This document shows positions 1-21,330 of a stretch of DNA of 64,000 nucleotides, piece after piece; the first letter of the stretch is position 1, and each line of letters opens with the position of its first letter. This stretch comes from Schmidtea polychroa (taxonomy: Eukaryota). The notes under the pieces are model-generated. The model was not told the DNA's origin and did not search any database. It saw nothing but the letters and a program-made list of their open reading frames with translations. The stretch is from positions 744,001 to 808,000 of the forward strand of contig CM097885.1 in NCBI GenBank assembly GCA_044892525.1, read 5' to 3'. A program made the translations under genes and the position numbers.

Positions 1-1391
1 CGCTTAAATCGAGTTATATAACAAAGACATAATAAAATTATTATTTACTACAAATATTTCACCTATCAAATACTTAACTAGAGATGATATATATTGATTG
101 TTCATAAAAGCAAACTTAATCATAAATTTCTGTATATTATTTTGTAAATTATTTCTGTAAATTAAATTTTGTATATTATTTCTGTAAATTATCAAGTAAA
201 TTTAAAGTTCTTGATAAGGTTAACTGGTTTCTTAGCTTATGTTTTTTTAAAAAAGTTCATCAATGTGTAAATATTCTTAGAAATATATTGAAAAAAATTA
301 TTTAGTCAAATGCATTACAAAGTCATCTAAAATTAAACCAATTACTTAATTATTAACCTAGCAGTCATTAAAAAATTAATTTTTATTTAAAATTTAACAA
401 ATTATCAAGAAATTCAATTAAAATCGTCATTAAAACTTTAAATTTTTAAATAAATCTACATGAAATTCTTAGAAAATATATGAAAAAAAATATTATTACA
501 AAGTCATATCCAATCACGTGATTATTAACCTAACTGTCATTAAAAATAATTTTTATTTAAAATTAAAAAACCAATCAGTGGCGTATCTAGGGTTCACGGC
601 GCCCGGGGCAAAACTTAAAATTGCGCCCCTCTCCACGTGAATTTTTTCTTTTCCTTATTATTGGTATATTATTTTTGCACTAAAGTGATATTTCTTTTTT
701 AAGAAAAAAAAATTATTATTTAAAAAAATCAAAAATTTTCACTCTTTAAAATTGATTTGCAGCAGTTTTAAAAAAAAATTAATTTAATTTTGCAACAAGT
801 TAGTTTTAAACTTTATTTATTGTAATAATTTACAAACAAATTTTTCGTGCTTTAACACTTGCGAACTTGTCAATGACATCATCAAAGTTAATTTTGTTCA
901 CAGTGTTTTTCTCAATACTTAATAATGCCAAATTATTTAAACGTTCTTCACTCATTGTTGTTTGAAGATATGACAAAATTAATTTTAATTTGCTAAAGGA
1001 ACGCTCGCATGTTGAAACAGAAATACCAATTGTCAAAAGAATTTGCAATGAAATTCTTAAATTTTGGAAAACATCTTCACCATAAGATATTAAAAATTTT
1101 AAAAGATCTATAGGTGATTTTGGAATTTCATCTTTTCGAGCATTAAGAAGCATTTTACAGTCAGTAACTTCATTGCATAGTTCGTTTTCATCAATATCTG
1201 AATTGTAAAATTTTCCCAAATTTGAACATTTTTCTTTTAATTTAGCAGGATCATGGCAATTTAGAAAATTTTCAGTGTCAATGAAATATCCAAAATTTTC
1301 GCTCAATGAATTAAGGCGAGTAAATCGAGTTTTTAATTCTTGAATTAATCTATCAACTGAGCATTTCAACACACGATCTAACTCTTGTTCA
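1..1391. repeat. Segmental duplicate of 22008-23397 (flank plus hAT 3' part)
   Basis: Near-identical sequence to 22008-23397 along its whole length; ORFs 4..195/21915..22202 and 830..1372/22836..23420 match. Confidence 0.95.
576..1391 (-). mobile_element. Truncated hAT transposon copy (one TIR plus transposase C-terminal dimerisation domain)
   Basis: CAGTGGCGTATCT terminus at 576; ORF 830..1372 with hATC motif SVSTCERSFSKLKLILSYLQTTMSEERLNNLALLSIE. Confidence 0.9.
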
Positions 1392-1403
1392 ACTCTTGTT
1401 CTT

Positions 1404-3240
1404 GTTTTGGGATTTCGTTTGTGTCCATGGATATTTTTATTCCAACAAGGGATTTAGGTTTATTACAACTACAACATTTAGAGTTGGTAGCATTATTTTT
1501 ATTTTTAGCGTTATCTGCTCCATTATCAGTTGCATTAATTATGGGTAAGTTGTCTATCAGAGCGATGGCGTTTTTGGGATCATTAGAGAATAAGGATGAG
1601 TTGGATGAAGGTTTTCGTTAAGGATAGATTTTTCGTTTAAAGGGGAGAGTTTATAAGAAATAGGGTTTTATGAAAGAATACTCAACGTCATCGGTTACAG
1701 AGTTTCTTTGTATAGAAGCCTCTATGATATCATGAGAGTCGTTATGGTTTACTGAGTCTATGGAGATGTGAGAGTTAGTTGTTTCGACGATACAAGTATC
1801 GTTTAATGGAGAAGGTTTGAAGGATATGGGATTTTTTTCCATTCATTCTGTTAATCTGGTCGTATAGATGCATCTGGCATTCATTCATTCAGGTTAGTTT
1901 ATTAGGAGAGGTAGAGCAAGTCCAACCTCTGTCTGGTGAGTATATGTTTCTGCCGGATCTCATTGAATTCTGAGGAGCCATTCCAAACAGATCGGGACAG
2001 ATTTCGCAGTTATAGTAATTGTTAGGAGAGGCAGTTAAGGCTTCTGTCTGATTAGTTTATATGCAATTATGAGCACTAACATTTTTCGTTTAAATCTATC
2101 TTAATTGGATAGAGTTTATAATAAATAGGGTTTATGAAAGAATCCTCAACGTCATCGGTTACTGAGTTTTTTTTTATAGAAGCCTCTATGATATCATGAG
2201 AGTCGTTATGGCTTACTGAGTCTATGGAGATGTGAGAGTTAGTTGTTTCGACGATAGAAGTATCGTTTAATGGAGAAGGTTTGAAGGATATGGGATTTTT
2301 CATAGAGTCATTATCCATATTAGAGTGTGAAAGGTGGTTAGAGTATTTCTTTGAGATGTTGGACTCATCTTTAATGGGAGTTGAAGTAATATTTGGGAGA
2401 TAGAGATTATCAAGATTAGTATTTGATGAGGCACTGCTCGATAGTTGGACATCATCGCAGTCTTCATCATCAAGATCACAGGTATTAGTTTTATTGGTAT
2501 GAGGGTTTAAGTAAAAAGGAGTATGATTATCCGACGAAGATTTAAGGACTGGAGTGATAGGAGTTGTAACTGAGATTGAGAGTATTGGCCTTGACAAGGT
2601 GTTTGTTGTCAAAAAGTCTCTTGATAATCGAGCAGATGAGATAACAGGTGTTTTTTTATGAATATTTCTATTATAATTAGATTTTGATAATTTAATATTA
2701 GAATTAGTGAATTTAAAAGATTTTAATATTTTATTTAGGCTTGAAGGTTTAATGGTATTCATCTTTTTAGGTGAATTGGGGATATCGCGGTTATGGTCTA
2801 TAAAGGTGGTGATTGGTTTTGAGAAGTGGGATAAAAGATTAAAGGCTTTTTAACAGTATTAACGTTGACGAAATTGTCAATATTTAGAGGAATGATAGGT
2901 TTAGAAGAGTGAGATCTTAAAGGATGGAGAACTAACGGTTTTTTGATAACGGGTTTATTTGAAGCAGTGGTGTTATAGGGCTTAATAAGGATAGAGTAAA
3001 GGCTAACTCGTAGGGTATTTTTAGTATAGTCGATAGTTGAGGTAAGGATGATATTGGATAAAGGGTCAGATTTTTCATTGTAAGAGAAAAGCGTATTAGT
3101 GTCGTTGGTTAAAGAATTATCGTAGTTGGTTTTAGGAGTGGTGAGGGCAGAGTTAGATGATACCGGGAAAGAGCTAACAGTTAAGTCTTTAAATGTAACT
3201 GTCTTAGATGATGCGAATCGGCCGCAGGTAAAAATGGGTA
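1404..3240 (-). pseudogene. Rearranged fragments of the S/N/T-rich N-terminal ORF of a NeSL/R5-like non-LTR retrotransposon
   Basis: CGRFASSKTVTF and CDLDD..DDVQLSSS match CGRLASSKTVTF and CDLDD..DDVNLSSS in the 47191-49907 ORFs, which lead into a Ulp1-like/RT region; internal duplication present; second copy at 57980-60047. Confidence 0.6.
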
Positions 3241-3431
3241 TTATATCGAGAATATTTAAACAAAGTAAAAGACTTTGAATAAATAGCCTCAATATTTGGA
3301 TTTATTAAATTAAAGATTTCATTTTTAAATTTTTTCAAATTAATTTTTGAAATATTAGGAATTAAAGATTTCCCAACTTCACCAATTCTGTTTTTGAGGA
3401 AATTGTGAAACTTTTTACTATGCTTTTTATC

Positions 3432-4730
3432 AGATCATGCTTTTTATCCAATTTTTAAATTTGTTTAAACCATATTTAAGAATATGGTGCATATCGTATC
3501 CTTTCAAGTTGTGAAATACGATAGGCAAAATTTTATTTATTTTCCTATTTATGTTACATGTGCTACAAGCTGCACCCAAGTATTTCCCCGTAAAATGATC
3601 GTGATCTCTAACAGGATCAACGATAGATTTCATACAAAGATAACAAACAGATGCACTAACAAATTGACGTTGTTCAATTTTCGTTAATTTCATCTTAGGT
3701 TTCCTACCCATTTTATAATAAAAAGGAAGAACCTTATTTAATGCTATATCCTCTATAGCACTTAAAAAACTCTCGACGCAATCTAAACCTATGAACTGTT
3801 GATAAGATTAAGATCCGTCAAAGTTATTTACAAGAAAAAGACCAGCAGATAGTGGCATGTGTCGTTTGAAATGAACATTATTGGAAGGTAAAATAGCCTC
3901 AAAATCGGCATAAACTACAAAGGGAGGAGTTACCAGTCAGTAAACTGCAATAATTTATTTTGAGGGAAAGTGTAAAGAGTTGTTCCTAATTGATTACGTT
4001 TACATAATATTTCATGTTTTTCCAGTGCGTGTTTATACCTAAACCCATTCAAACACCGATGGCACCATAATGATTGTATGCGTGTAGGACAACTAGTGGT
4101 GATACCACAATTCAGTAACCTATTTAAATTACTTATAGCAACGTAATGGAAATTGTTTCCTTTATTTAATAGTAGTAAATTAATTACAGTTCCATTTAAA
4201 ACTTTGGAACGATGTATAATATCTAAATGTGGATGTTTTAATACATAATTATCAGTTAATTGTTTGCTATTATCATATGAAAAAACATTAATTATTAAAC
4301 CCGAATTTTTAGATTCAAATTTCCTAATGTCTTTTAATTTCATAGGTAATTCTATCGGGTCGTATACTAAGTCAGATAAATTATAACTCGATGTCCTATT
4401 TCTAGCATAACTACTAACTTCATCATATTTTAAAATAGCTAAAATGCTATATAAAAAACATGAATCATCAGTGTTTTTTATATTAATTAAACGATATTTA
4501 TTTTGTAGATAAGTAGGTGTTTCAATGAAACTCCTACCACTTAATCTACTTAACATACTTATTTTTGTTATGGTGAAATGTATTTCAGTAATATTTTTTA
4601 TATTCCAACTGCTTCCTAACTCAGTAATATTAGTAATTTTCTCATTTAATTCTTTAATGCCTTCATCAAAAATTGATGCAGTTAAAGGCTTTGCATAATT
4701 TGAGATATTTCTAACCTTTATTTACCCGTC
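3432..4730 (-). pseudogene. Older Polinton pPolB gene, part downstream of the nested insertion (N-terminal/endonuclease VII-like region)
   Basis: LINIKNTDDSCFLYSILA, HYVAISNLNRLL, CHRC, PPFVVYADFE, RDHDHFTGKYLGAACSTCN and FHNLKGYDMH are homologous to the young pPolB; stops and deletions present. Confidence 0.85.
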
Positions 4731-4976
4731 AGTAGTGAGGAATCTATGCACCCCAGCACCCCCACCCTCAAAAAAAACAGCGCTATTGACCCATATTTTC
4801 CACATTTATATGCTTTTTTACCCCATATTCTTCACTTTTTTTAACTTTTAAACTTTGTCCCCTATTGCCATTAACCCTTAATTTCTTCCCTTAATAGTAA
4901 AAAAGTTCGGAATAGATGTATTTATAGATTAGTAATTCCGAGAAAAGGTAACGGGGTGCATAGATTCCTCACTACT
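4731..4976. repeat. Terminal 246-bp unit bounded by a perfect 24-bp inverted repeat of the element terminus
   Basis: AGTAGTGAGGAATCTATGCACCCC at 4731-4754 and its exact reverse complement at 4953-4976. Confidence 0.95.
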
Positions 4977-5109
4977 TGGTCTTAAGGATTTAATGTTATA
5001 AGGATTTAATGTTATAAGAATATCAGATTACCTAATTCATAATGATCTAGGTCGCCTGATCACCTTAAGGTTTTGAAAGTTTTAAAAATAAAAAATTTTA
5101 TGAAATAGT

Positions 5110-5476
5110 AAAACTGCTCTGAGAGGACAGTGGTTTTTTTTTTTTTTTTTCACTGTCCTCTCAACAGTTTTTTTTTGATCCGGATCATTTTTTTTTATTC
5201 AACCTCTTTCGTTTATCAAATCTCTTCCAATATACAAGCTGGCCAGACTCATACATCAGAATCAATTCGATAATAGCAGCACACCTTATTATTCGCTTCT
5301 CGCTCGAATACGATTTCATCGGCGTTTTAAGTGTGCTGCTCGAAAGTACAAATGAATTCGAAAGCGAATCCGAAAGAGGTCCGAAAACAACTGAGAAATA
5401 AATGTGCACATTACCGGAATCGATCCAGGGGTGTTCGAAAGACAGGTGGCGATAATTACCGGTTCGCCACCATCAC
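5110..5476 (-). ncRNA. Putative Pol III tRNA-Asp-headed structured RNA (left TIR copy)
   Basis: A-box TGGCGAACCGG, tRNA-Asp-like GGTAATTATCGCCACCTGTC and B-box GGATCGATTCC, then nested stems and a 13-bp hairpin with an oligo-A loop; expression not shown. Confidence 0.45.
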
Positions 5477-5654
5477 CCGTTTCAATATTTTTTTTTTCAT
5501 ATTTATGTTTAAAAAATAATTAATTAATAAAAAAATAAAATAAAATAAAATAAATAAAATAAAATATACAAGTACTTTATAAATATAAGATACCCACACT
5601 ATTTTCAATATTATTTTCAAATTTTTAATATTATTTTATGTTGAAAAAAAACTA

Positions 5655-5726
5655 ACCTCAGATGTGATTTGAACCACTATCCATTTGAACCACTGTGCCA
5701 GTCTATTCCCACTGCGCCATCAAGGT
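5655..5726 (-). ncRNA. tRNA-like Pol III unit (left TIR copy)
   Basis: ACCTTGA-TGGCGCAGTGG (A-box) ... GGTTCAAATC (B-box) ... GAGGT, then an oligo-T terminator; 72 nt; no proper anticodon arm. Confidence 0.6.
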
Positions 5727-5973
5727 TTGAATTTTTGTCATTTTTTAGACTATAAATAATCGATTCAAGTTCTTTAACTCTTTCCTGTAATTGTTTCATT
5801 TTCTTCAATCTTATATCAGCAACATCTACAGCCTTCATATAAAAATGTCGATACTTTTCATTATCTACCATCAACTCTTTGATGTATTCTAATGGTTCTT
5901 CTTCTCTTCTTTTCATTCTCTTATGTTTAACTTCATTCAATTCATTTCTCATTCTTTCTTTTAACTCATCCAT
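5677..5973 (-). CDS. Small coiled-coil hypothetical Polinton protein
   Basis: 98-aa E/K/R-rich helical ORF in an AAAATG context; its 3' end runs into the TIR and overlaps the tRNA-like unit. Confidence 0.55.
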   Translation of the reverse strand: MDELKERMRNELNEVKHKRMKRREEEPLEYIKELMVDNEKYRHFYMKAVDVADIRLKKMKQLQERVKELESIIYSLKNDKNSNLDGAVGIDWHSGSNG

Positions 5974-6142
5974 TTTTATAAATATTTTTTTATTGGATAT
6001 ATTAATTTTTGGTAGCTTAAGTTAAAACGTTTTTGATCTTAAATTTCCAAGAGTTGCCGTTGACCAATCTCATTAAAAATTTGTACAAGTACTAAATCGA
6101 GTATGCTGATCAATATTTCGTTAAAAAAAATTTGAAAAAAAA

Positions 6143-6215
6143 TGACCGAAATGGGATTTGAACCCATTGGTATTGGCAATGCAGTCGAGTGCTATTACCA
6201 CTAAGCTATTAGAGC
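6143..6215 (-). ncRNA. tRNA-Cys(GCA)-derived Pol III unit / pseudo-tRNA
   Basis: TAGCTTAGTGG A-box; AGCACTCGACTGCA resembles the tRNA-Cys D-arm/anticodon region; perfect T-arm ATGGG-TTCAAAT-CCCAT; T8 terminator; acceptor and anticodon stems do not pair fully. Confidence 0.65.
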
Positions 6216-6384
6216 TATACTCAATATAAAATAAGTTGTTAATGTGTGACTATTTATTGATGAAATTAATAATTAATTATTCATTTTCTCGACAACTACC
6301 AGTCAGATCCATCTGAAAATTTAAATATATACTAAAATCAGTACGCTGAATCAGACTCCGTTGAAAAAAAATATCGATAAAAAT

Positions 6385-6457
6385 TGACCAAAATCGAAAA
6401 TTGAACCCGGTACTCCCGGTGATAAAATTGAAGCCTATTCCACTCCGCTATAATGGC
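6385..6457 (-). ncRNA. Degenerate tRNA-like Pol III unit, tandem paralogue of 6143-6215
   Basis: TAGCGGAGTGG A-box, GGGTTCAA partial B-box, T-run; its downstream flank is homologous to that of the 6143-6215 unit. Confidence 0.5.
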
Positions 6458-6513
6458 TTACATAATATATTTAATTAATCCTATTTTGTGTGTGTAAATT
6501 TTAATATATAAAA

Positions 6514-7806
6514 ATGAATAACATAAATCTTAAAATTCAAGAAAAAAATAAATTAAATCTTGATTATAATAAAGAATTTACTCATGAAATTAAAAAAAAT
6601 GATATTTTAAAAATCTCTCCAACTTCAGGATCTATTGCAAACTTAAATCGTAGGGGTGATATAGTTTTTCAATCTTTTCAAACATCAAACCCAATAGATA
6701 TTTGTAATGCCAAATTATATTACAAAGTAGAATTAGAAATTGAAGCAAACAAAGATATAACCCTAGAAAATAATTTCTTTCCAAATTTATTCTCCAACAT
6801 GAGATTAAAACTAAGATCATCAGAAATTGAAACTGTTTTGCATCCGGGAGTATATTCTACAATGTTAAATTTTATTTTGACTGGTTGTGATTATAAAAAC
6901 GAATATGGTGAATTAACAGGTTGGATTCCTGATGTTAATAAAGGAGATTTAGATAAAGATGGTTTAGATGTAAACCATGGTTACCATAAAAGAGCTGAAC
7001 TTTATAAATCTAAAAAATTTGAAGGTTATTTTGAATTAAAACACTTGTTTGGATTCCTTCAAAACTATAATCGCATACTTCATAATGTTTTTATAGAATT
7101 CATCTGTAATAGAGTAGAAGGTGATAAAAGATTGTTCTATGGAGCTGTAGATACAAAAGCTAAATTAAAATTATCAACACTTGAATTACATATACCTGAA
7201 TGGACATTAAACCCACATTCTGAGATTAAACTCCTTGAAAGATTAAATTCCAACAAGTCTATAAATGTAAATTATTTAAATAGAATCTGTAGTGAATTTA
7301 GTATGACAGAGGGTTCAACATATTCTATAAAGGTAGCAAATTTAGCATACCGACCAAGATATATCTTGATTGGATTCAAGGAAGTAGATTCATCTTTCCA
7401 AAAAAATAACAACTTGTTTATTCAAAAGATTGGAGTTGATAATTTAAAAACAATACAAATTCAATTAAATAGTTCTTATTATCCAATAAATAGAATGGAA
7501 TTTAATATTGAAAATAATGAAAACATATTCCCATATCTAAATTATATTGAAACATGTTATGATTTCAAAGTTGAACCGCAATTAAGTTTAGAAGATTTCA
7601 AAAATTTATATTCTATATTTTGTATAAATGTTTCAGACCAAGATGATTGCCTAGCCATAAATAATGTTGATGTTACACTTCATGTAACAAAGGATTCTAA
7701 TTTTAAAGCTAAAGTATATACATTAATATTAGAAGAAAAGAAAATAGAAATGAAATTATATGGTGGAAAGATTTCAATAATCGAAAATGTTAGGGGAGAT
7801 TCTTGA
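6514..7806 (+). CDS. Major capsid protein (double jelly-roll, hexon-like)
   Basis: 430 aa; Polinton MCP-type motifs ITLENNFFPNLFSNMRL, EIETVLHPGVYSTM, LFGFLQNYNRIL, RPRYILIGF, YSIFCINVS; element context. Confidence 0.85.
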   Translation: MNNINLKIQEKNKLNLDYNKEFTHEIKKNDILKISPTSGSIANLNRRGDIVFQSFQTSNPIDICNAKLYYKVELEIEANKDITLENNFFPNLFSNMRLKLRSSEIETVLHPGVYSTMLNFILTGCDYKNEYGELTGWIPDVNKGDLDKDGLDVNHGYHKRAELYKSKKFEGYFELKHLFGFLQNYNRILHNVFIEFICNRVEGDKRLFYGAVDTKAKLKLSTLELHIPEWTLNPHSEIKLLERLNSNKSINVNYLNRICSEFSMTEGSTYSIKVANLAYRPRYILIGFKEVDSSFQKNNNLFIQKIGVDNLKTIQIQLNSSYYPINRMEFNIENNENIFPYLNYIETCYDFKVEPQLSLEDFKNLYSIFCINVSDQDDCLAINNVDVTLHVTKDSNFKAKVYTLILEEKKIEMKLYGGKISIIENVRGDS

Positions 7807-7835
7807 TATAATCCCTGATATTTTAACATTTTAAA

Positions 7836-9218
7836 ATGTCTCTAAATAAATATTGGAGATGTGAAAGTTGTAATTGTCAAGTTACAAGACATCATAAAGC
7901 AAGTCATTTAAAAACTAAAAAACATACAGGAGGCGATCTACAATCTTCAAAAACAACATCTTCAATATTACAACCTTTTAGTACAGAAAAATATCCAGGT
8001 GAAAGACATTTATTTAAACACAACTACACCGGACCAGGAACAAGATTAGATATTAGATTAGATGAAAATAATAATCCCAAACAAGGAGAAGAACCAATAA
8101 ATAGAATTGATCAAGCAGCTTTAAAACATGACATTGCATACAATTCAACAAATCTTAGAGATAGACATGTTGCAGATGTGAATTTAATACATGATTTAAA
8201 TAGTATCCAAAATCCATCAACCCAAGAAAAGATTCAAAGAGCTCTAGTTAAATTAGCAATGAAAGGTAAGATTTTCATAGGCTTAGGACACAGTCCGATC
8301 ACCATGGGTGCAAGACTTCCTAGAATAGCAAAAGATGTTGCTTATAAAAAGATTATCGAACAAGCAGACATTGAAAGATCCCTTGAGAATATATCCAAGA
8401 CTAGTTTACAAACCCCAACAGAATCAGAAATAAAATATGCAAAGGAATTACACCATGAATTTAGAAAAAATAAAAAATATTTAAAAGTTCAAGTACATGA
8501 AAAAGATCAAACATGGTCTGCAGATTTAGTCTTTATGCCCAAATCATCAGACCCTGAAAAATATAAAATAATTTTAACTGTAATAGATTTATATACAAGA
8601 TTTGCTTTTGCAAGGTGTTTAGAAAATAAAACAGGATATTCTATTACAGAAGCATTTGAAAATATATTTGAAGAAAATCAAAGAATCCCAAAATATTTAT
8701 GGTGTGATAAAGGAACAGAATTTTATAACAAAGTTTTTACAAAGTTTTTAAATGAAAATGATATTAAATTATATTCAACAGAAAACGAAGGAAAAGCAGT
8801 CGTAGTTGAAAGATTAAATAGAACATTAAAAAATAAAATGTGGAAATATTTTACTGCTATTGGAAAACAAAAATGGAACAATGAATTGTTACAAAAGATT
8901 GTAAATGAATATAATAATGATGTACATAGTTCTATAAAATCAACACCTTTAAATGCTTCCTTGAATCCTTTGGAACTCATAAATCCTGTTGAAAATGATG
9001 TTATTGAAAAACCAAAGTTTAAAATTGGTGACCGAGTAAGAATATTTAAATATAAAAATAAATTTGAAAAAGGATTCACAGCAAAATGGACAAATGAAAT
9101 TTTTATTATAAATAAAATAAATTATACAACTCCAATAACATATAGCATCATTGATTTAAATAATGAAAAAATATTAGGTAGATTTTATAATAATGAGTTA
9201 CAGAAAACAGATTTCTAA
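7836..9218 (+). CDS. Zinc finger - parvovirus-type PLA2 - retroviral-like (rve) integrase fusion
   Basis: CESC...H...H zinc finger; HNYTGPGT ... PINRIDQAALKHDIAY (PLA2 Ca loop and HD dyad); integrase DDE in WSADL, CDKGTEF, VVERLNRTLK; PKFKIGDRVRI. Confidence 0.92.
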   Translation: MSLNKYWRCESCNCQVTRHHKASHLKTKKHTGGDLQSSKTTSSILQPFSTEKYPGERHLFKHNYTGPGTRLDIRLDENNNPKQGEEPINRIDQAALKHDIAYNSTNLRDRHVADVNLIHDLNSIQNPSTQEKIQRALVKLAMKGKIFIGLGHSPITMGARLPRIAKDVAYKKIIEQADIERSLENISKTSLQTPTESEIKYAKELHHEFRKNKKYLKVQVHEKDQTWSADLVFMPKSSDPEKYKIILTVIDLYTRFAFARCLENKTGYSITEAFENIFEENQRIPKYLWCDKGTEFYNKVFTKFLNENDIKLYSTENEGKAVVVERLNRTLKNKMWKYFTAIGKQKWNNELLQKIVNEYNNDVHSSIKSTPLNASLNPLELINPVENDVIEKPKFKIGDRVRIFKYKNKFEKGFTAKWTNEIFIINKINYTTPITYSIIDLNNEKILGRFYNNELQKTDF

Positions 9219-10006
9219 AACAAACTTTTCCATATTTCAGCTTCTTTTCTATCCAAATAAATATAATTATATTTTTCTTTCCAATGATTATCAACAAACA
9301 TATCAAACATATTCTTATCAGGTTCAACATTTGAAAATAAATCATTATAAATCATATTCTTATCACGGCGATCTAATTTAAAAAATATAAAACAATTGGA
9401 ATTATTTCTTATAGAGTTTTTATCTAAAGCATAATAAGTTTGAGATATATAAATAACATTACAATTATTATGTCTTCCTCTTGTAAAGTAACTCTTTTGA
9501 ATCTCTTGATTTTTCATGTTGACAACATCATCAAATATAACTAGATTCTTTTTATCTTTAGGAAGTAAATCACAATGTAAAACATCTTCAGGTTTATTAG
9601 AGAATAAAACTTGAATTGCCTCCTGCCCTTCTTCACAAATATAATCATTTTTATTACTAATATCTGATTCTAAAATCTTTTCCTTATACCAATCAACCAT
9701 ATCACAAGGTTGAAAAACTTCTTCAGGACACCTATGTTGATTTTTAAAAATATCAATTATTGCTTTTTTAGTTAATTTATTTTCAAATCCACATTTCAAA
9801 AGTTGTAATTCTGGTTGATTTATGGTTGTAGAATAAAAGATTAAATTATTATAATCTAAAAAATCATCTTCAAGTAACATTCTCAAAACAAGTACATTCT
9901 TTCCACATCCAGAAGAACCAACAATTAATAATCTAAAATTATCAGGAAATACTTTATTATTGAATTTACTCTTATGTCTATTTAAAATTGGTTTCCAAGT
10001 ATCCAT
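9215..10006 (-). CDS. A32/FtsK-like DNA packaging ATPase
   Basis: Walker A GSSGCGKN (atypical N), Walker B LVIFDD, FTRGRHNNCNVIYISQ, IRNN. Confidence 0.92.
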   Translation of the reverse strand: MDTWKPILNRHKSKFNNKVFPDNFRLLIVGSSGCGKNVLVLRMLLEDDFLDYNNLIFYSTTINQPELQLLKCGFENKLTKKAIIDIFKNQHRCPEEVFQPCDMVDWYKEKILESDISNKNDYICEEGQEAIQVLFSNKPEDVLHCDLLPKDKKNLVIFDDVVNMKNQEIQKSYFTRGRHNNCNVIYISQTYYALDKNSIRNNSNCFIFFKLDRRDKNMIYNDLFSNVEPDKNMFDMFVDNHWKEKYNYIYLDRKEAEIWKSLF

Positions 10007-10022
10007 TTTTATTTATTATAAA

Positions 10023-10601
10023 ATGACAACTGAAGAATCTTTGCAAGAATTAATATATTCAAATAAAAATAAATCAGTAGTAATTGATGGTAAAAAATAT
10101 TTTATTGGAAAACATGTAAAAGAACAAGTTAGAGCGAAGCTCCACGAAGCTAAAGAAGGTGGCATTCTTCCATTAGCTGCTTTAATACCTGCAATCATTG
10201 CTGGTTTATCAGGTGCTGCTGGAATAGCTGGAGGAATTGCAACTACAGTTCAAAAAGCTAAAGAATCTCAAAAGACAGACCTAGAAAAAGAAAAACTACA
10301 AACTGAAATCGATTCAATGAAGAAGGTAGGGCAAGCTAAAGGGGGAGTGTCCGTTGGAAAGGGTCTCTATCTTAATCCATATGAGGGGAGTCGGCAAAAG
10401 TCTCAGGGCAAAGGTCTCTATCTTGATCCTTATAAAGGTAGAGGTTTAAATGATTTTTTAAAAAATCAAATTTCTACATCTGAATCTTTATCTTCAAAAG
10501 ATAAAGAAGATTTAAAAAAAATATGTAAATCTTTAAAGAATGGATGCCTTTGTAAAACTAAAAATGGTAAAGGATTATACTTGAAGCCCTTCGAACTATG
10601 A
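10023..10601 (+). CDS. pX/cupiennin-like virion core or membrane-active protein
   Basis: GGILPLAALIPAIIAGLSGAAGIAGGIA amphipathic segment and three GKGLYL repeats; likely start is the AAAATG at 10023. Confidence 0.7.
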   Translation: MTTEESLQELIYSNKNKSVVIDGKKYFIGKHVKEQVRAKLHEAKEGGILPLAALIPAIIAGLSGAAGIAGGIATTVQKAKESQKTDLEKEKLQTEIDSMKKVGQAKGGVSVGKGLYLNPYEGSRQKSQGKGLYLDPYKGRGLNDFLKNQISTSESLSSKDKEDLKKICKSLKNGCLCKTKNGKGLYLKPFEL

Positions 10602-10623
10602 TACCATTTTTGATACCATTAAA

Positions 10624-11517
10624 ATGGTATATGAAGAAAGATTAGCACTTTTAAAAAAATTACAATCAGAACAAGATAAATATAATAAAAAAGATACAAC
10701 TCAACATGCTGAATCTATAATATTAAATGAGGTAATAACACAACAACAGGGGCCAACAATTAAAGCTATAAAAGAGTTGGAAGATTTCAATGAGCAAGCA
10801 AAATTTAAAGAGTTAGAAGATAAAAAACAAAAAATAAAAGAACTAGAGTGGCAGGAAAAAGAAAAAGAATCCACTGAAAATCATCCTGAAAGTCATTCTG
10901 AAAGAAATCAAAGAAAACGCAGAAGAATTTCTAATGTGGAAGAAGAAGAAATGTTTTTTAAAACAAAACCTCTTAAAGTTGATCCTAAAATTAGAGATGA
11001 TTTACCTCCTTCAATTAGACCCACATTTAATACTAATACTGAAGGATATCAAATAATAACAATTTATAAACAAAACTTTACTTTATATTCAAATTCAGAA
11101 AATAAATCACGTATTCATTCACAAAATGTTTATAATAATGAATATTTAGACTTTGAATTTACAGATGATTTTTATAGATTACTTTGTGGATATTCTTCAG
11201 GTGATGTTGAAGAAATTAAAAAATATTTAAATTTAATAAGATTAATAAGAGCTAGTTCTAAAGCAAAATATATTCAAGATTTAAAGAATTATTTAAATAA
11301 AAATGAAAAGGGTTATGTTGTTACAGAGGGAGAGGGATTAATTAGTGAAGGTGGTAAACCAAATCCCATCAATCTTTTTATTGAATTAAGAAAACTATTA
11401 GCTGCAAGGAAAGCAGGACATAATAATTTAGATTCTGATATTTTAAAGATTTCTAAAGATTTGTTAAAACAAGGAATAATTTCAAAAGATAAATTTAATA
11501 AGTATACGAAGTTATAA
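10624..11517 (+). CDS. Conserved Polinton hypothetical protein (GEG ... LLAARKAGHNN C-terminal motif)
   Basis: 297-aa ORF with an AAAATG start; C-terminal motif of a type seen in Polinton core proteins; function unknown. Confidence 0.65.
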   Translation: MVYEERLALLKKLQSEQDKYNKKDTTQHAESIILNEVITQQQGPTIKAIKELEDFNEQAKFKELEDKKQKIKELEWQEKEKESTENHPESHSERNQRKRRRISNVEEEEMFFKTKPLKVDPKIRDDLPPSIRPTFNTNTEGYQIITIYKQNFTLYSNSENKSRIHSQNVYNNEYLDFEFTDDFYRLLCGYSSGDVEEIKKYLNLIRLIRASSKAKYIQDLKNYLNKNEKGYVVTEGEGLISEGGKPNPINLFIELRKLLAARKAGHNNLDSDILKISKDLLKQGIISKDKFNKYTKL

Positions 11518-11539
11518 ATACGAAGTTTTAAAATACAAA

Positions 11540-12004
11540 ATGACTCCTTCAATATTAGATTTTTTAAAAACATTTGGAATAAATGCAAAAACAAATTTTG
11601 ATTTAAAAGATTATGCAAATTATTTAAATTTAAAAATTAAAATATTAATGAATGATGAATTATCAAGTCTGGAGAGTCCCCTGAATATAATAATCAATTA
11701 TCAAAATTCAAATGAAAAAGGATCTCATTGGGTTTGTATATATAAGAAATCTATCTACTTTGATTCTTTTGGGATTAAACCTACTAAAGAAGTTGAAGAT
11801 TATCTCTTGAGGGGTTCTCCGATTGATTCCCCAAATGGTTATACTTTTAACTCTTTACAAGTTCAACCTTTGAATACTAAAATATGTGGTATTTTAAGTT
11901 TATATGTTTTGTATAGATTGAATAAGGGAGAGGGAAAGGGGCATACGCAGGATTTTGAATCTATAATTCAAGAAATTTATAATGATCTAGAATCTCTACT
12001 ATAA
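11540..12004 (+). CDS. Adenain-like maturation cysteine protease
   Basis: GSHWVC (His), YFDSFG (Asp), QVQPLNTKICG (Gln/Cys). Confidence 0.92.
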   Translation: MTPSILDFLKTFGINAKTNFDLKDYANYLNLKIKILMNDELSSLESPLNIIINYQNSNEKGSHWVCIYKKSIYFDSFGIKPTKEVEDYLLRGSPIDSPNGYTFNSLQVQPLNTKICGILSLYVLYRLNKGEGKGHTQDFESIIQEIYNDLESLL

Positions 12005-12073
12005 GGATTTTTACTATAAGGATTTTTACTATAAAGATTTTTACTATAAGGATTTTTACTATATGAATTTACT
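11998..12073. repeat. 15-bp tandem repeat (ATAAGGATTTTTACT) x~5
   Basis: Directly visible between the protease and penton genes. Confidence 0.9.
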
Positions 12074-12121
12074 ACTAAAGAAATGGAGCTTCACAACCCT
12101 CCGGAAGATAATTTAAAAAAA

Positions 12122-12847: not shown

Positions 12848-12871
12848 AGATTCATTTTAAATTATTAATAA

Positions 12872-13882: not shown

Positions 13883-13890
13883 TTATTAAA

Positions 13891-14502: not shown

Positions 14503-15298
14503 AATGGGTGTATTTTTAAAAAAGTAGATCAGGTTGCTATAGTTGCTTAAATTAATTGTCGACATTTTATTATTAAAAAATTAAATATCGTTGGTTTCAG
14601 TTATGGTTGAAAGTCAACCTATGAATCATTAATTTATGATCTTTAAATTCTTTATCACTTAGACCTTTTATATATTTAAGTTCTAAACATATAGGATTAA
14701 AAACTTGAGAATATAAAGGTTTCCCGATTTCTCTCTCGGGATAAATAATTTCAACATTATAAATATCAAGATCAGTAATCTTTGTATCATATAACTTATT
14801 CAACTTTTCTAGATTTTTTATTATAGGGACGAAGAAATAATGAAATCAAATCAAATAATACAAGATATAAAGAATGAGGTTATAAGATTAAAAAGGGAGG
14901 ACATGGTGGCTAATGTTATAAGTAATAAAAAAACATCTCGAGAAAAATGGTTAAAGAATTCTTACTTATAAAATGGGTGTATTTTTAAAAAAGTAGATCA
15001 GGTTGCTATAGTTGCTTAAATTAATTGTCGACATTTTATTATTAAAAAATTAAATATCGTTGGTTTCAGTTATGGTTGAAAGTCAACCTATGAATCATTA
15101 ATTTATGATCTTTAAATTCTTTATCACTTAGACCTTTTATATATTTAAGTTCTAAACATATAGGATTAAAAACTTGAGAATATAAAGGTTTCCCGATTTC
15201 TCTCTCGGGATAAATAATTTCAACATTATAAATATCAAGATCAGTAATCTTTGTATCATATAACTTATTCAACTTTTCTAGATTTTTTATTATAGGGA
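14359..15298. repeat. 469-bp tandem duplication spanning the convergent gene ends
   Basis: 14359-14829 repeated at 14828-15298 with a GA microhomology; explains the spurious ORF 14597..14803. Confidence 0.93.
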
Positions 15299-18200
15299 TT
15301 AAATTATTTCCAATAGGTAGAGTTGTCTTTAAATCACTTAGTATGAATCTTTTATCATCATAATTTGATAATGATACTTTTTGAGATTCTATCAAGTGAA
15401 TATCATGGTTTTCACTTTTAAGTTGATGTATTTCATCAATTTTATCTTTATGATTTGGATTCAATGTATCTATATAATCTTGATGAGAAAGATTCTTTGC
15501 CACCACTCTCTGTATTCCTTTACATCTGTTATCCTTTACAGGTTTTTCTTCTTTAGGAAATATAGGATATCTATGTGTAATGGTTTCTTCTGTTTCTGGA
15601 GTTTTAAATATAAATGATCTAGTTATAAATTCAGGGTTTCTAAATGTTTCGTATGAATATTGTTTAGCACGAATAAATATTCCATTTTCTATAGGAGTAA
15701 AAGGTTTTTCATCTTTAAACGAAAATAGTTCTCCAGATGAATTTATTAAATTTGAAAGTATAGGATTTTCTTTCATATCTTTTTGTAAATCATGAGTTCT
15801 TATTGTTAAAAACATTGAATCTGTATCCATTGCATGCATTGATATATTTGCTCCGTATATAGGTTGTAAGATGTTATAATATGTTTCATACATTTGTAAT
15901 TTTGAAAGTTCTAAAATTGTAAACCCTATAAATATTGGTTTGTTATATGTTTTCTCATAATTTTTTAATTCTACTGCAGTAAGATTTTCAGAAAATACTT
16001 GTGCGTTTTTAAATGTAGGCTTTCCTTGCATGCGATTATAACGCTTAATATCTTTGGTAGTATTTGTTAGGAGTTCAATATGAGTATATTTATCAACATT
16101 CTCCATTGTTTTCCCAAAGACTGAATTGTTTAAAATTTTATAATTATTATCTTTAAAAAGGTTACCTTCTCTTTTTGCAATGTTTCGACACCTAATGTTC
16201 TCCTCGATAAAAGCTTTCATGAATGGAGCTTGTTTAAATCTTATGACACTATGAACTTTTTTTAATATCATTCCTCGTGAGAGATAAAATTGGAGGAGTC
16301 TATAGTGACAAAGATAAAACCTTCGATCTGTTTGATCACAAAGAAGTTTCATTGTTGGAGGTTTATCTTGTGAGATTTGCCATTCAGAAAGTTCGTTGAT
16401 ATCAATCTTTCTTCTTATGGGAGCTAAAGGAAAATATCTTGTTCCTGATTTTATATCATCTGGATAGTCGAGGTCACATTCTATAAAGTAACCTATTGGA
16501 GAATCTTTCGATGTTGAAAGTATTTCTTTCATAAGGTTATCTGTTGGGTTCTCTATTTCAGTGAAATCACTCATTGGTAAATATTGAGTCATAATTCCTG
16601 AATATAAAGCTGTTGCATCTATATAAAGTATAAATATAGGATTTTTCATTGTTTCTAATAATTCTTTTAATTCCTCATTGTTAATTTTCATATATGGATC
16701 ATCAGGGTGTTTAGATAGTCTTCGGCTAGTAGTTATTGCATTTCTAGCTTTTATTTCTCTATTCCCCATTACTGAAGAGACTCCTCCTCTAATGTTTGTT
16801 TTAATTTGGTTAAACATATCGAGGTTAGTTAAAAGATCTATAATTTTATCAGCATCTTCTATATTTGAAGTCCAAATGGTATATAACATAGTATCCCAAG
16901 CTAAAGAGGGTGCAGTTATATAATTATAGGGTTTAAGAACAAAAGATTTTGTAAATTCTTCAAAGCAATCTGCTAGAATATAAACATCCAAGGATAAATA
17001 CATACTTGTATATTCTCCTAAAGTTTTACACTTGAATAATTCCCACATTTTATTTGCTCGAGAATATTCTTGATTTGTAATATGATTTTTTTGAAGTTGT
17101 GAATAGAAATCTTCTAGGCTAGGAAGACTTGTTTCATTATATCTTTCAAACGAGTCAACATAGTCATAAGGATATATTCCTTTTGCTAAACATGTAGGAT
17201 ATTCTTCTAGAGGAATATTATTTTTTTCCAAGAATTCTCCAGTGATTTTAAAATTTTCTGCTTTCATTGTTTTTGCTACTGCATCTAAAGACATTTGGAG
17301 AAAGTTTAACGAGTCTATAAATTTTAATTTTCCATATTCAATTGATTTATATTTTTCCTTTGTTAAGCCGATAACTTTGAAAGAGTTTTTAGCATTTGCT
17401 GCGAGGTGTTTAATAAATAGATGTATGTCATATCCAAAAAGATTATGAAATATAACAGGTATAAATTTAGGAGTATGGCAATTAAGATTGCAATTTTTAT
17501 GAGCTGCTCCTTGATAATTATTTTCCTTTTTTAAATGATCATGATCTATAACTTTTTCATCAGGAAGAATATTCTGTTTACACATCCAACAGTTGGAAGT
17601 ATTTTCATATTCTTGTTGTTGTTGATTAGAAATATTTTGAGGATACTTTGTTTTTAATATTTTAAATATTTCATGTTCTAGATCATTTATATTTTTAGTA
17701 AAATGATTCAAGACTTCTTCAGGGGTACCTCCTAGAATTGAATATTCTCTAGATTCTATGAGTTCAGGATAATTACTTTTAAATAATAATTTATAAGCAG
17801 ATGATAATTGATTAGTTTTTTTAACACTATTAGGTTTATTTCTTTTTCTTAGAAAGGCTTTCATCCTCTCTGGTTTCATCTTCTCTCCTGAGGAGTTCCA
17901 TGAATCCATGAGTTTATTTTTTTCTATTATTTTTAAATATTGATAAACCAAATCTTGTTTATGGTTTATAGATTCAAAGTCACCATAAAGAACTCCAACT
18001 GTTTGTAGTAAATTTGAAAAGTTTTTAAAATACATCTTGGGATTATTAGGCATTTTAATTAAAGCTGGATCATCTTTTTCACAAAATCTTGTATGTTTAA
18101 TCATAGAGTTTTTAGTTGTTGAATAATGAAGACATCTTTTACATGTTCCTCCTCCACTAGTTGGATTCTCTGGAGATGTAAAAGCTTGAAAGTTTTTTAT

Positions 18201-19346
18201 TAAAACATAATGTTGATTATTTTCTTGTTCCAAGATTAAAAGATATATCTCGTTGTCCTGTGCTCCGTTATCCTTGGTTCCACTATCTGAAATATAAATT
18301 GGAATAATTTCTTTCCCTATAACATGTTCATAAATATTAAGTTTAAGATTATTTAAACTTTCAAATTCTGGAATGTCTTCTAGTTTCATTGAGTGTTTGA
18401 ATCCTTTGGGAAATATTAATTCATTTTCATATTGTTTGTATTTTGAAACTCTTTGGGGATTTGTTGCTTGAGGATGTAAATGTGCAAGTATTGACCAGAT
18501 GAAACATTTGTTATCATTATTCTGTACATTTATAACATTTTTATATTTAAAGGGTGTAGGAATATAAGATTTAGGATTGGGTGGTAATCCTCTCCAATAA
18601 TCAATCACTAAAGTTTGGAAAGAGTTGAATACTAAGTTTGAATCTCCTAATTCATTTTCTACTTCCTCTTGTTTTGCTTCTGCTGCTTTAATTATTTCTT
18701 TGATGGTTTTATCAAATCCTTTAATTGAAAATAAATATTTAAAAGGTATTCCAATTTCAACATCTAAGGGTGTTGTCTTTTCTTCTGCTCCTCGCCAGTA
18801 TTTTGCTTTGATTATAATTTTATATTTTATAACATTATACCTTGTCGGTTTATAATTTTTTAAAGCTTCAGTGAAAGAATTTTTAATATTTTTTTTATTT
18901 TTATTTATATATTCTCCAGGAGTTGCAGGCCCATTAATTTTTAATTGAAATTCATCTATATGATTAAAATTATCCCAGTTATATTTTTCTCTTTCAACAT
19001 GATCAGGTTCTCCTTCTGAATGACATTCCTCATCGTCAGAATTTTGTTTTTTATTTTTACATTCTTTTATATGTTCTAAATAATAGAAATTTAGTTTTGT
19101 TGAAAAGTTACAATGAGGACATGTAAATATTTCTCTATTTTTCCCGATACAATTTTCAAAATGTTTATTATATCCAGAATGTAGAAATCTTCCTTGACAT
19201 TTAGGACAAAGTTTTGAATTTGTATCATTAAGATTATTTTCTTTTAATAAATGAGCTTTCGATTTTAAGTGAGAAATTAATCCAGTTTTATTTTTAAAAA
19301 CTTCATTTTTAGAAAAAAATTTTTTATTGGATACCCTGTTTTCATT
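15066..19346 (-). CDS. Protein-primed family B DNA polymerase with N-terminal zinc fingers and an endonuclease VII-like region
   Basis: YGDFE, FHNLFGYD, KGIYPYDY, YIDATALY, KILNNSVFGKT, MDTDS, KGI; my translation shows the frame stays open from 19346 (CPKC, CPHC fingers) with no in-frame ATG upstream of 18608. Confidence 0.93.
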   Translation of the reverse strand, partial: NENRVSNKKFFSKNEVFKNKTGLISHLKSKAHLLKENNLNDTNSKLCPKCQGRFLHSGYNKHFENCIGKNREIFTCPHCNFSTKLNFYYLEHIKECKNKKQNSDDEECHSEGEPDHVEREKYNWDNFNHIDEFQLKINGPATPGEYINKNKKNIKNSFTEALKNYKPTRYNVIKYKIIIKAKYWRGAEEKTTPLDVEIGIPFKYLFSIKGFDKTIKEIIKAAEAKQEEVENELGDSNLVFNSFQTLVIDYWRGLPPNPKSYIPTPFKYKNVINVQNNDNKCFIWSILAHLHPQATNPQRVSKYKQYENELIFPKGFKHSMKLEDIPEFESLNNLKLNIYEHVIGKEIIPIYISDSGTKDNGAQDNEIYLLILEQENNQHYVLIKNFQAFTSPENPTSGGGTCKRCLHYSTTKNSMIKHTRFCEKDDPALIKMPNNPKMYFKNFSNLLQTVGVLYGDFESINHKQDLVYQYLKIIEKNKLMDSWNSSGEKMKPERMKAFLRKRNKPNSVKKTNQLSSAYKLLFKSNYPELIESREYSILGGTPEEVLNHFTKNINDLEHEIFKILKTKYPQNISNQQQQEYENTSNCWMCKQNILPDEKVIDHDHLKKENNYQGAAHKNCNLNCHTPKFIPVIFHNLFGYDIHLFIKHLAANAKNSFKVIGLTKEKYKSIEYGKLKFIDSLNFLQMSLDAVAKTMKAENFKITGEFLEKNNIPLEEYPTCLAKGIYPYDYVDSFERYNETSLPSLEDFYSQLQKNHITNQEYSRANKMWELFKCKTLGEYTSMYLSLDVYILADCFEEFTKSFVLKPYNYITAPSLAWDTMLYTIWTSNIEDADKIIDLLTNLDMFNQIKTNIRGGVSSVMGNREIKARNAITTSRRLSKHPDDPYMKINNEELKELLETMKNPIFILYIDATALYSGIMTQYLPMSDFTEIENPTDNLMKEILSTSKDSPIGYFIECDLDYPDDIKSGTRYFPLAPIRRKIDINELSEWQISQDKPPTMKLLCDQTDRRFYLCHYRLLQFYLSRGMILKKVHSVIRFKQAPFMKAFIEENIRCRNIAKREGNLFKDNNYKILNNSVFGKTMENVDKYTHIELLTNTTKDIKRYNRMQGKPTFKNAQVFSENLTAVELKNYEKTYNKPIFIGFTILELSKLQMYETYYNILQPIYGANISMHAMDTDSMFLTIRTHDLQKDMKENPILSNLINSSGELFSFKDEKPFTPIENGIFIRAKQYSYETFRNPEFITRSFIFKTPETEETITHRYPIFPKEEKPVKDNRCKGIQRVVAKNLSHQDYIDTLNPNHKDKIDEIHQLKSENHDIHLIESQKVSLSNYDDKRFILSDLKTTLPIGNNLIPIIKNLEKLNKLYDTKITDLDIYNVEIIYPEREIGKPLYSQVFNPICLELKYIKGLSDKEFKDHKLMIHRLTFNHN

Positions 19347-19412
19347 TTATTTTTTAAGATTTATATTATTCATTTTTTATAATAAAAATTTAAAAAATGA
19401 CAAAAAATCCAA

Positions 19413-19484
19413 ACCTTGATGGCGCAGTGGGAATAAACTGACACAGTGGTTCAAAATGCTAGCGGTTCAAATCACATCTGAGGT
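19413..19484 (+). ncRNA. tRNA-like Pol III unit, diverged tandem copy just inside the right TIR
   Basis: TGGCGCAGTGG A-box, GGTTCAAATC B-box, T9 terminator; part of a ~215-bp tandem duplication with the 19627 unit. Confidence 0.6.
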
Positions 19485-19626
19485 TAGTTTTTTTTTCAAC
19501 ATAAAATAATATTGAAAATTGTGTGGGTATCTTATATTTATAAAGTACTTGTATATTTTATTTTATTTATTTTATTTTATTTTATTTTTTTATAAATTAA
19601 AAATTAAAAAAATGACAAAAATTCAA

Positions 19627-19698
19627 ACCTTGATGGCGCAGTGGGAATAGACTGGCACAGTGGTTCAAATGGATAGTGGTTCAAATCACATCTGAGGT
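19627..19698 (+). ncRNA. tRNA-like Pol III unit (right TIR copy)
   Basis: Identical to 5655-5726; A-box, B-box, oligo-T. Confidence 0.6.
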
Positions 19699-19876
19699 TA
19701 GTTTTTTTTCAACATAAAATAATATTAAAAATTTGAAAATAATATTGAAAATAGTGTGGGTATCTTATATTTATAAAGTACTTGTATATTTTATTTTATT
19801 TATTTTATTTTATTTTATTTTTTTATTAATTAATGATTTTTTAAACATAAATATGAAAAAAAAAATATTGAAACGG

Positions 19877-20246
19877 GTGATGGTGGCGAACCGGTAATTA
19901 TCGCCACCTGTCTTTCGAACACCCCCGGAACGATTCCGGTAATGTGCACATTTATTTCTCAGTTGTTTTCGGACCTCTTTCGGATTCGCTTTCGAATTCA
20001 TTTGTACTTTCGAGCAGCACACTTAAAACGCCGATGAAATCGTATTCGAGCGAGAAGCGAATAATAAGGTGTGCTGCTATTATCGAATTGATTCTGATGT
20101 ATGAGTCTGGCCAGCTTGTATATTGGAAGAGATTTGATAAACGAAAGAGGTTGAATAAAAAAAAAATGATCCGGATCAAAAAAAAACTGTTGAGAGGACA
20201 GTGAAAAAAAAAAAAAAAAAAACCACTGTCCTCTCAGAGCAGTTTT
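19877..20246 (+). ncRNA. Putative Pol III tRNA-Asp-headed structured RNA (right TIR copy)
   Basis: A-box 19884-19894; B-box variant GGAACGATTCC 19927-19937; stems 19973-19982/20142-20151, 20013-20022/20069-20078, 20043-20048/20058-20063, 20191-20203/20224-20236. Confidence 0.45.
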
Positions 20247-20625
20247 ACTATTTCATAAAATTTTTTATTTTTAAAACTTTCAAAACCTTAAGGTGATCAG
20301 GCGACCTAGATCATTATGAATTAGGTAATCTGATATTCTTATAATATTAAATCCTTATAACATTAAATCCTTAAGACCAAGTAGTGAGGAATCTATGCAC
20401 CCCGTTACCTTTTCTCGGAATTACTAATCTATAAATACATCTATTCCGAACTTTTTTACTTTTAAGGGAAGAAATTAAGGGTTAATGGCAATAGGGGACA
20501 AAGTTTAAAAGTTAAAAAAAGTGAAGAATATGGGGTAAAAAAGCATATAAATGTGGAAAATATGGGTCAATAGCGCTGTTTTTTTTTAGGGTGGGGGTGC
20601 TGGGGTGCATAGATTCCTCACTACT

Positions 20626-21330
20626 CGCGTCTTTTTCAAATTCGATTGTTATTCCGAATTGAATTTTGACGGAGCCTAATTCGTTAATAATATCTCGTAA
20701 TTTTATTATTAGTTGTTCAGGAAATATTATTTCTTTTATATTTAAGTTGCTTGTATTTAAGCCTAATATTTGATGGGTACCTCTTAAATCTCTTTGTACT
20801 GTCGGTACATTTCCACCTATTTGTATTATATTTAATCCATCCCAAGAATCAAAAGAAGTGAATAATCCATCATTGGATTCAACAACCAATCCGACCTGGC
20901 ATTCAACAAAAGGCAATCCGACCTGGGATTCAACAAAAGGCAATCCGACCTGGGATTCAACAAAAGACAATCCGTCCTGGGATTCAACAACCAATCCATC
21001 ATTGGATTCAACAAAAGACAATCCGACCTGGAATTCAACAAAAGACAATCCAGCCTGGGATTCAAAATCTAATCCGACCTGGGATTCAAAAGAAGAAGTA
21101 TCTAATTTAATTTTTTAATTGTATTATTTTTTTCTATAGTTGAGGGTCTTTTAAAAACACTATCTTTTTTAAAATTAAACCTATCTAAATGATTTTTATG
21201 TTTATTATAAAAAACGCTATATGTTACAGGGTCACTAGTCTTACATACAGGACATATAAAATAAGTTTTATTATAATATTTTTTCGTGTAATAATTCTCC
21301 ATTATAGAATGGCAATTATTATCATGTTCT
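20626..21330 (-). pseudogene. Older Polinton pPolB gene, 5' part upstream of the nested insertion
   Basis: Reads ...KIQFGITIEFEKD, continuous with 4730 downward as shown by the uninterrupted copy at 60650-61158; N-terminal CPVC finger (21102..21302). Confidence 0.75.
20860..21090. repeat. 24/27-bp minisatellite (VESQVGLPF-type repeat in the old pPolB frame)
   Basis: About nine units of AATCCGACCTGGGATTCAACAAAAG(G/A)C and shorter variants. Confidence 0.9.

Follow-up and report, generated by a model that had tools for sequence, protein, structure and literature searches.

Intact Mavericks are described, in the available part of the source, as elements with TIRs of 46-1,447 bp, ends of the type (AGT)2 or (AG)3 and a 6-bp TSD (PMC8097293). 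The excision of Polintons and the restoration of their ends are so far only modelled: the element is taken to loop out of the chromosome, and a panhandle to serve as origin, as far as the accessible text of that work states (PMC4046053). Panhandles are also discussed, in a source available in excerpt, as a model for the restoration of homology between ends, for which even PRD1 and adenovirus have yielded no direct evidence (PMC11886824). According to the accessible part of a recent preprint, the TIRs of butterfly Polintons have taken in whole genes (bioRxiv 10.1101/2025.02.07.637071). For the ITR of AAV, the text available to us describes rolling-hairpin replication, where the folded 3' end primes synthesis and flip/flop ends arise (PMC11575299).

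In the window, by which we mean the whole 64-kb stretch of DNA that was analysed, we found an apparently intact Polinton/Maverick of 15.9 kb (4731-20625). It carries a pPolB, an rve integrase and a DJR capsid with a packaging ATPase, and has long TIRs with AGTAGT ends and a 6-bp TSD. The two TIRs (4731-5746 and 19607-20625) are 1,016 bp long and 99.1% identical, differing by six substitutions and three bases in T runs. In size, TIR length, (AGT)2 ends and 6-bp TSD the element fits the Mavericks described in the available part of PMC8097293. What sets it apart from the Mavericks described there is that each TIR contains, 223-246 bp inward, a further copy of the 24-bp terminus, exact and inverted (Table 1).

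Table 1. Positions of the ends, target site copies and main genes of the Polinton (window coordinates).
Feature	Position	Strand	Remarks
Left TSD copy	4725..4730	+	CCCGTC
Outer left terminus (T), 24 bp	4731..4754	+	begins (AGT)2; exact match
Spacer (u), 198 bp	4755..4952	+	non-coding, weakly structured
Inner left terminus (T')	4953..4976	-	exact inverted copy, points outward
Rest of left TIR (R), 770 bp	4977..5746	+	begins TGGTCT; short tandem repeats
tRNA-like stretch	6143..6215	-	Rfam RF00005, 32.4 bits (gathering 29)
Double-jelly-roll major capsid protein, 430 aa	6514..7806	+	PF21738, E 4.3e-26
rve integrase with N-terminal PLA2-like domain, 460 aa	7836..9218	+	PF00665, E 5.8e-12; PF08398, E 4e-9
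A32-like packaging ATPase, 263 aa	9215..10006	-	PF04665, E 9.9e-9
Probable adenain-like protease, 154 aa	11540..12004	+	matches ORF of Polinton L008, E 1e-12
Protein-primed family B polymerase	15066..19346	-	PF03175, E 8.5e-12
Rest of right TIR (R')	19607..20379	-	
Inner right terminus	20380..20403	+	points outward
Right spacer	20404..20601	-	oriented to its end as left spacer
Outer right terminus	20602..20625	-	
Right TSD copy	20626..20631	+	CGCGTC, 5/6

A sequence-only reading of this DNA had claimed four perfect copies of the terminus, and all four were recovered without mismatch at the places given in Table 1. No fifth copy with up to three mismatches is present in the 64-kb window, and none of 100 shuffles reached four matches of the 24-mer, which starts AGTAGT. 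Outer and inner arms are identical through base 24, after which the likeness drops abruptly to chance; the regions behind the two arms are unrelated, their best local alignment covering 26 low-complexity columns. Both ends are laid out as T-u-T'-R, that is terminus, spacer, inverted inner terminus and remainder, where T' is complete to its last base and ends flush against R. The resulting 246-bp unit makes up the outer quarter of the 1,016-bp TIR. It contains no ATG ORF of at least 80 aa, and differs between the left and the right end at two of 246 positions (4769 and 4895). The spacer is pyrimidine-rich over its first two thirds and is without look-alike elsewhere in the window. Within it, matches of 12-13/20 to the terminus were rejected as chance, since they lie at the same level as in control ends. 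The same reading had held that the left and the right spacer are oriented alike with respect to their ends and that the unit, lacking a TSD, is integral to the TIR. We can confirm the former (2/2) as well as the latter, the unit being flanked by CCCGTC on its outside and TGGTCT on its inside. A GTC common to the inner flank and the TSD was dismissed as chance, being at control level.

The outer termini behave as ordinary Polinton ends. The TSD of the whole element is identical at five of six positions (CCCGTC / CGCGTC), and the target has a paralog without interruption at 60245-61179. This second copy, 96-97% alike to the interrupted polymerase gene of an older Polinton, has a single CCCGTC at 61027-61032 and no insert. 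The presence of the TSD together with the empty paralog implies that the outer termini made a clean, integrase-type insertion. The element moved as one 15.9-kb piece via its outer termini.

The surroundings are rich in mobile DNA. The insertion lies within the polymerase gene of an older and different Polinton, whose family left several broken copies in the window (3430-4730, 20626-20780, 37520-38065 and 60050-61179) and is also deep in reads. A further Polinton family is represented by right ends at 34852-35866 and 61576-62818, where C-terminal pieces of the polymerase precede an AT-rich TIR that terminates in ACTACT. Either side of the nested Polintons lie pieces duplicated at 99.3% (1-1391 and 22008-25367), which we take, from motifs judged by eye, to be parts of a hAT-like transposase. 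The stretch 41648-55724 holds nested, fragmented non-LTR retroelements with duplicated blocks of 100% identity; judged in the same way, these are presumably of the R2/NeSL type.

Several details of the element's interior are recorded here. The 154-aa ORF gave no significant match in Pfam and PDB searches, and its assignment as an adenain-like protease draws on catalytic motifs that we believe to recognise by eye. The polymerase frame is open from stop to stop over 1,426 codons, with its first ATG only at 18389; the 319 open codons upstream (18390-19346, minus strand) contain C2H2-like motifs. Since the frame is open upstream of the first ATG, a non-ATG start or splicing is implied. A perfect 469-bp tandem duplication at 14359-15296 covers the 3' ends of a 203-aa ORF and of the polymerase, both of which retain one whole copy; it may be a very recent event or an assembly slip. 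In the left R we noted a hairpin with a poly-T loop near 5105-5175 and Pol III-like A and B boxes at 5719-5666 (minus strand). Pol III-type stretches were seen at 6143-6215 (-), 5666-5719 (-), 19420-19473 (+) and 19634-19687 (+). Only the first of these was reported above the Rfam tRNA gathering score, and it was not called by ARAGORN; the others show T runs after their A and B boxes and lie within the TIR. Next to the right TIR, at 19340-19600, there is another tandem copy, which has diverged (84%). It is possible that these stretches give VA-RNA-like small RNAs of a Polinton. Rfam matches to miRNAs and snoRNAs in the TIR all fell far under the gathering scores. A 180-bp non-coding interior piece (6009-6186), which includes the 3' part of the tRNA-like stretch, recurs alone at 55936-56115 with 96.7% identity, and several read sets have loose contig ends at 6009; this piece may be SINE-like or otherwise mobile.

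In order to see how common the layout is, contigs of four of the 19 listed read sets were aligned to 4400-6200, the summed contig depth being no copy number. Two of these sets, X16 and X17, are samples of one study and possibly the source of the assembly. Their median bin depths were 1.0e6 and 3.7e5, respectively, for the 246-bp unit, 7.7e5 and 2.2e5 for the inner junction, 7.8e5 and 2.8e5 for the next TIR bin, 1.7e6 and 5.6e5 for the inner TIR and 1.0e6 and 3.4e5 for the element core. The rarest contigs, by comparison, reached tens to hundreds. Taken roughly, these summed depths suggest an abundant family with hundreds of copies or more. The junction bin stands at 0.96 (X16) and 0.84 (X17) of its neighbours and thus without a dip, while it would be expected to fall to about half, as far as overlapping short contigs can tell, if unit and R were unjoined in most copies. 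No loose end at 4976/4977 occurs among 24 of the 491 listed, and no variant in either 24-mer among 40 of 60 listed rows. The sequence-only reading had asked whether the inner terminus might be unique to this insertion or unsupported by reads. Unit, junction and TIR were found at similar, very high depth in both X16 and X17, which speaks against both; the inner terminus seems not to be private to this insertion but apparently family-wide, as far as summed contig depth indicates. From the same depths, T-u-T'-R would be the common form of the TIR in samples containing the unit.

Two further sets look different. In X1, which has the same organism label and comes from another study, the bins at 4766-4948 had depths of 32, 0 and 0, missing contig cover being no evidence of absence, while 5071-5741 was deep (median 2.9e5). 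The metagenome X3 likewise had next to no depth in the spacer bins 4766-4948 and a deep inner TIR. Other populations may carry the TIR with a different tip, which would fit a capture of the terminus and is uncounted for it here. By summed depth, the inner TIR of X1 lies at about seven times the core (2.9e5 vs 4.3e4, over 5071-6200), compared to 1.6-1.7 times in X16 and X17, as if a part of the TIR were common to another abundant family there.

Relatives were found in viral_contigs. A profile of 36 integrases (35 of 120 listed matches plus the query) led to seven loci, of which L008 (IMG/VR, 1-15597) is the only one with both ends; the other six were left out as controls. L008 is a complete related Polinton with a 123-bp TIR and a gene set of capsid, integrase (44%), ATPase, protease and polymerase. 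Its TIRs begin CCCAGCCC and not AG/AGT, and its integrase region lies in two ORFs. Three ends of another family in the window (35866, 62818 and the degenerate 27571) served as further controls. An inner copy of their own terminus is absent from L008 and from these three ends, where the best matches reach 11-13/20 compared to 20/20 here; within the limits of four controls, Polintons therefore do not need an inner terminus. The integrase has 654 relatives at E<=1e-30. Single-protein queries with integrase, polymerase and capsid returned no relatives in viral_contigs. Patterns of the terminus had no matches (22-mer in viral_contigs, 24-mer in genome_contigs), and five matches to an 18-mer of it in metagenome_contigs were all rejected as chance, the likeness stopping after 18-21 bases.

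The possibility of a local fold was raised in the sequence-only reading, which proposed that each end could form a duplex origin or integrase substrate. In the predicted fold, the 246-bp unit has a 24-bp stem and a mostly unpaired 198-nt loop (-34.5 kcal/mol), with pair probabilities of 0.93-1.0 in the stem at the 3' end of the plus strand; none of 200 shuffles was as stable (z -6.9). On either strand, the 3'-terminal base is predicted to pair with the base that opens the inner copy; beyond the inner arm, the rest of the element genome would stay a single-stranded template. According to this model, a folded 3' end is a recessed 3'-OH on template, hence a self-priming hairpin, and a folded 5' end is a 3'-tailed stem. 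The proposal thus holds with regard to a stable hairpin, but what forms would be a primer-template junction and not the flush duplex end of a panhandle. The panhandle of both TIRs is far more stable (-352 kcal/mol over 300 bp, compared to -30 for the 24-bp duplex), while the local fold should be the faster to form.

These data allow several explanations of the inner terminus to be weighed. By analogy with the ITR of AAV, the layout might be a functional terminal hairpin, in which a 3' T' pairs back with the inner T and primes the second strand without terminal protein or long-range panhandle; the integrase would then cut the hairpin-ended duplex or an inverted dimer at the termini, so that the spacer flips. 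The strength of the predicted stem, the recessed 3' end on template at both ends, the z-score and the apparently family-wide occurrence of the layout at both ends agree with such a role, yet the two spacers share one orientation, the long panhandle would be much the more stable structure and relatives lack the inner terminus. Moreover, no Rep/HUH nuclease family was detected by Pfam in the ten element ORFs scanned, five of which are without credible family. No strand-changing joint, such as the spacer flip suggested in the sequence-only reading would leave, was found among 15 of 29 listed either, which is a weak test, since a flipped junction amounts to a contig of about 36 letters and, with 31-letter words and about six letters of its own on each side of the shared 24, may escape listing. 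We consider this explanation unlikely. It is distinctly unlikely, in our opinion, that T' serves instead as a second recognition site, meaning a subterminal binding site of integrase or of terminal protein and polymerase that is left uncut and assists the assembly of an end complex. The inner and outer repeats of IR/DR Tc1 elements and the multiple end sites of Mu and Tn7 are analogues. A spacing of about 200 bp, the exact conservation at both ends and the abundance of the subfamily would suit such a site; it is missing, however, from L008 and the three other ends, the analogues are mostly direct repeats, and binding would not require the very last bases of the terminus, with which T' is nevertheless complete and flush.

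The 246-bp unit had also been suggested to move independently, as a mini-element, and one may imagine a composite transposon in which the Polinton integrase still mobilises T-u-T' alone. Each unit does end in two complete termini oriented as an integrase requires, and in X16 and X17 the bin medians place it about 1.3-fold over the adjoining TIR bin, leaving room for some solos. Against this, neither unit has a TSD, the single-position depth of the unit (4895) to that of R (5048) is 1.00 in X16 and 0.68 in X17 and shows no excess, no solo unit was found elsewhere in the 64-kb window, and the inverted identity extends 770 bp beyond the module, unlike in a plain composite. Because unit to R depth is not well above 1, a large excess of free 246-bp minis is not present, and solo units would be at most a minority; the suggestion of independent movement is thus unsupported, and we regard a still active mini-element as very doubtful. 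That the inner terminus arose in the assembly, or by a rearrangement confined to this copy, might be argued from the 469-bp duplication, perhaps an assembly slip, and from the fact that X16 and X17 may be the source of the assembly. This explanation is almost certainly wrong: the two units differ at two positions, the inner junction has no dip in two samples, and nearly all depth at position 4895 has the base found in the right-hand TIR, which makes the left base a change private to that copy and means that the assembler did not duplicate one end from the other.

To the explanation we prefer, the one-off capture of an inverted end that was copied to both TIRs and amplified as a passenger, we give about an even chance of being correct. 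It is favoured because the outer ends carry the TSD, the identity of the arms stops at 24 bp, the depths of unit and TIR are alike and the relatives are without T'. The junction between T' and R looks like an integration junction, in which a complete terminus is joined to unrelated sequence. Since this junction is flush, as an integrase leaves it, the likeliest event is a single past insertion of a mini-module or a lone end into the TIR tip of an ancestor. A non-coding unit of 246 bp whose perfect 24-bp arms equal a Polinton terminus fits a short non-autonomous element with an autonomous partner. In such a history, the integrase would once have joined a T-u-T' mini-Polinton, or a single terminus, into the tip of the ancestor's TIR, and the outer T of the module would then have become the working end. 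Panhandle or copy-back correction during protein-primed replication could have copied the new tip to the opposite end. The inner terminus, embedded and pointing outward, would since have been amplified mainly as a passenger. Initiation at it or fold-back on it might give 246-nt minis and palindromic copy-back molecules at low frequency only.

Four termini permit three kinds of end pairs, namely outer-outer for the whole element, outer-inner for the 246-bp mini and inner-inner for an inside-out product, and only outer-outer pairing has evidence of use here. In support of the passenger reading we also list a rare variant found in both X16 and X17 that skips 4927-4983, inner terminus included, by joining 4926 to 4984 (one contig each; 0.05% and 0.02% of the local depth, respectively). 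As a remnant of the state before T' was acquired, the variant was rejected: given its great rarity and its end points in tandem repeats, loss of the segment from a single copy is the simpler account. We take the element for a member of a young, high-copy Polinton subfamily. Against capture, neither an ancestor lacking the module nor a solo module with a TSD turned up in the window or the aligned read sets. Also, a perfect inner copy in both TIRs fits selection as well as it fits youth, and the abundance of the subfamily bearing the module could mean a benefit.

The feature is real and unusual, and more likely a passenger than a separate mini-element. With four termini in competition and a high copy number, the family offers a natural experiment on which end pairs get used, and counts of end pairs and of spacer flips bear on nearest-end excision, on the firing of embedded origins and on the copy-correction of ends. 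If the passenger reading is correct, a nearest pair, 246 bp apart, that is almost never used would disfavour simple cut-and-paste or local loop-out excision. It seems rather improbable that the lineage evolved parvovirus-like ends, where the displaced strand primes its own second strand locally and the integrase resolves the duplicated termini. If it had, protein-primed and rolling-hairpin replication would be combined in one element. Flip/flop spacers, 246-bp mini-replicons and palindromic copy-back satellites would then be by-products that can be traced, and the model of Polinton replication and excision would become readable from genome sequence alone.

Among known systems, the A-loop-A'-D order of the AAV ITR, in the description available to us, resembles T-u-T'-R, as both consist of a terminal arm, a loop, an inverted arm and a segment common to both ends. 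Compared to that description, the end studied here has a 24-bp stem with a mostly unpaired loop of 198 nt and no T-shaped inner palindromes. Moreover, no Rep nuclease was found and no flip/flop was seen here, and the element has a protein-primed polymerase of its own. In the composites Tn5 and Tn10, as well as in composites flanked by MITEs, each of the two inverted modules has an outside and an inside end, near-identical to each other, and the entire composite transposes by the outer pair. The element is similar in that its core lies between two such modules and that the outer ends moved it; unlike in Tn5 and Tn10, its module is non-coding, the integrase lies in the core and inverted identity continues for 770 bp past the modules. 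Haj-Ahmad and Graham in 1986 and Wang et al. in 1991 reportedly described adenovirus mutants that carry embedded ITRs and the repair of minichromosome ends through panhandles. In these mutants an added terminal segment is said to have been copied to the other end, enlarging the inverted repeat, as we propose here; the embedded adenovirus ITR is, by the same accounts, an unstable direct repeat, whereas the inner terminus here is inverted and apparently fixed in the family. The minimum reported for adenovirus panhandles is 31 bp, which exceeds the 24-bp stem found here.

Casposons, which are self-synthesising and for which loop-out excision and a panhandle origin have been modelled, have TIRs with internal palindromes; they are prokaryotic and use a Cas1 integrase, and the accessible part of that source does not state that the palindromes repeat the terminus (PMC4046053). 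In the available text on adintoviruses, a PLA2-like domain marks the virion module of the 'Alpha' type, while here this domain is fused to the integrase (PMC8502044). Searches of the open literature found no earlier description of an inverted inner terminus. Overall, the element resembles Polintons/Mavericks in its pPolB, rve integrase, DJR capsid and A32 ATPase, perhaps also in its candidate protease, as well as in its length of 15.9 kb. It is an ordinary Polinton/Maverick, and the layout of its TIRs is an apparently undescribed variant in the open literature.
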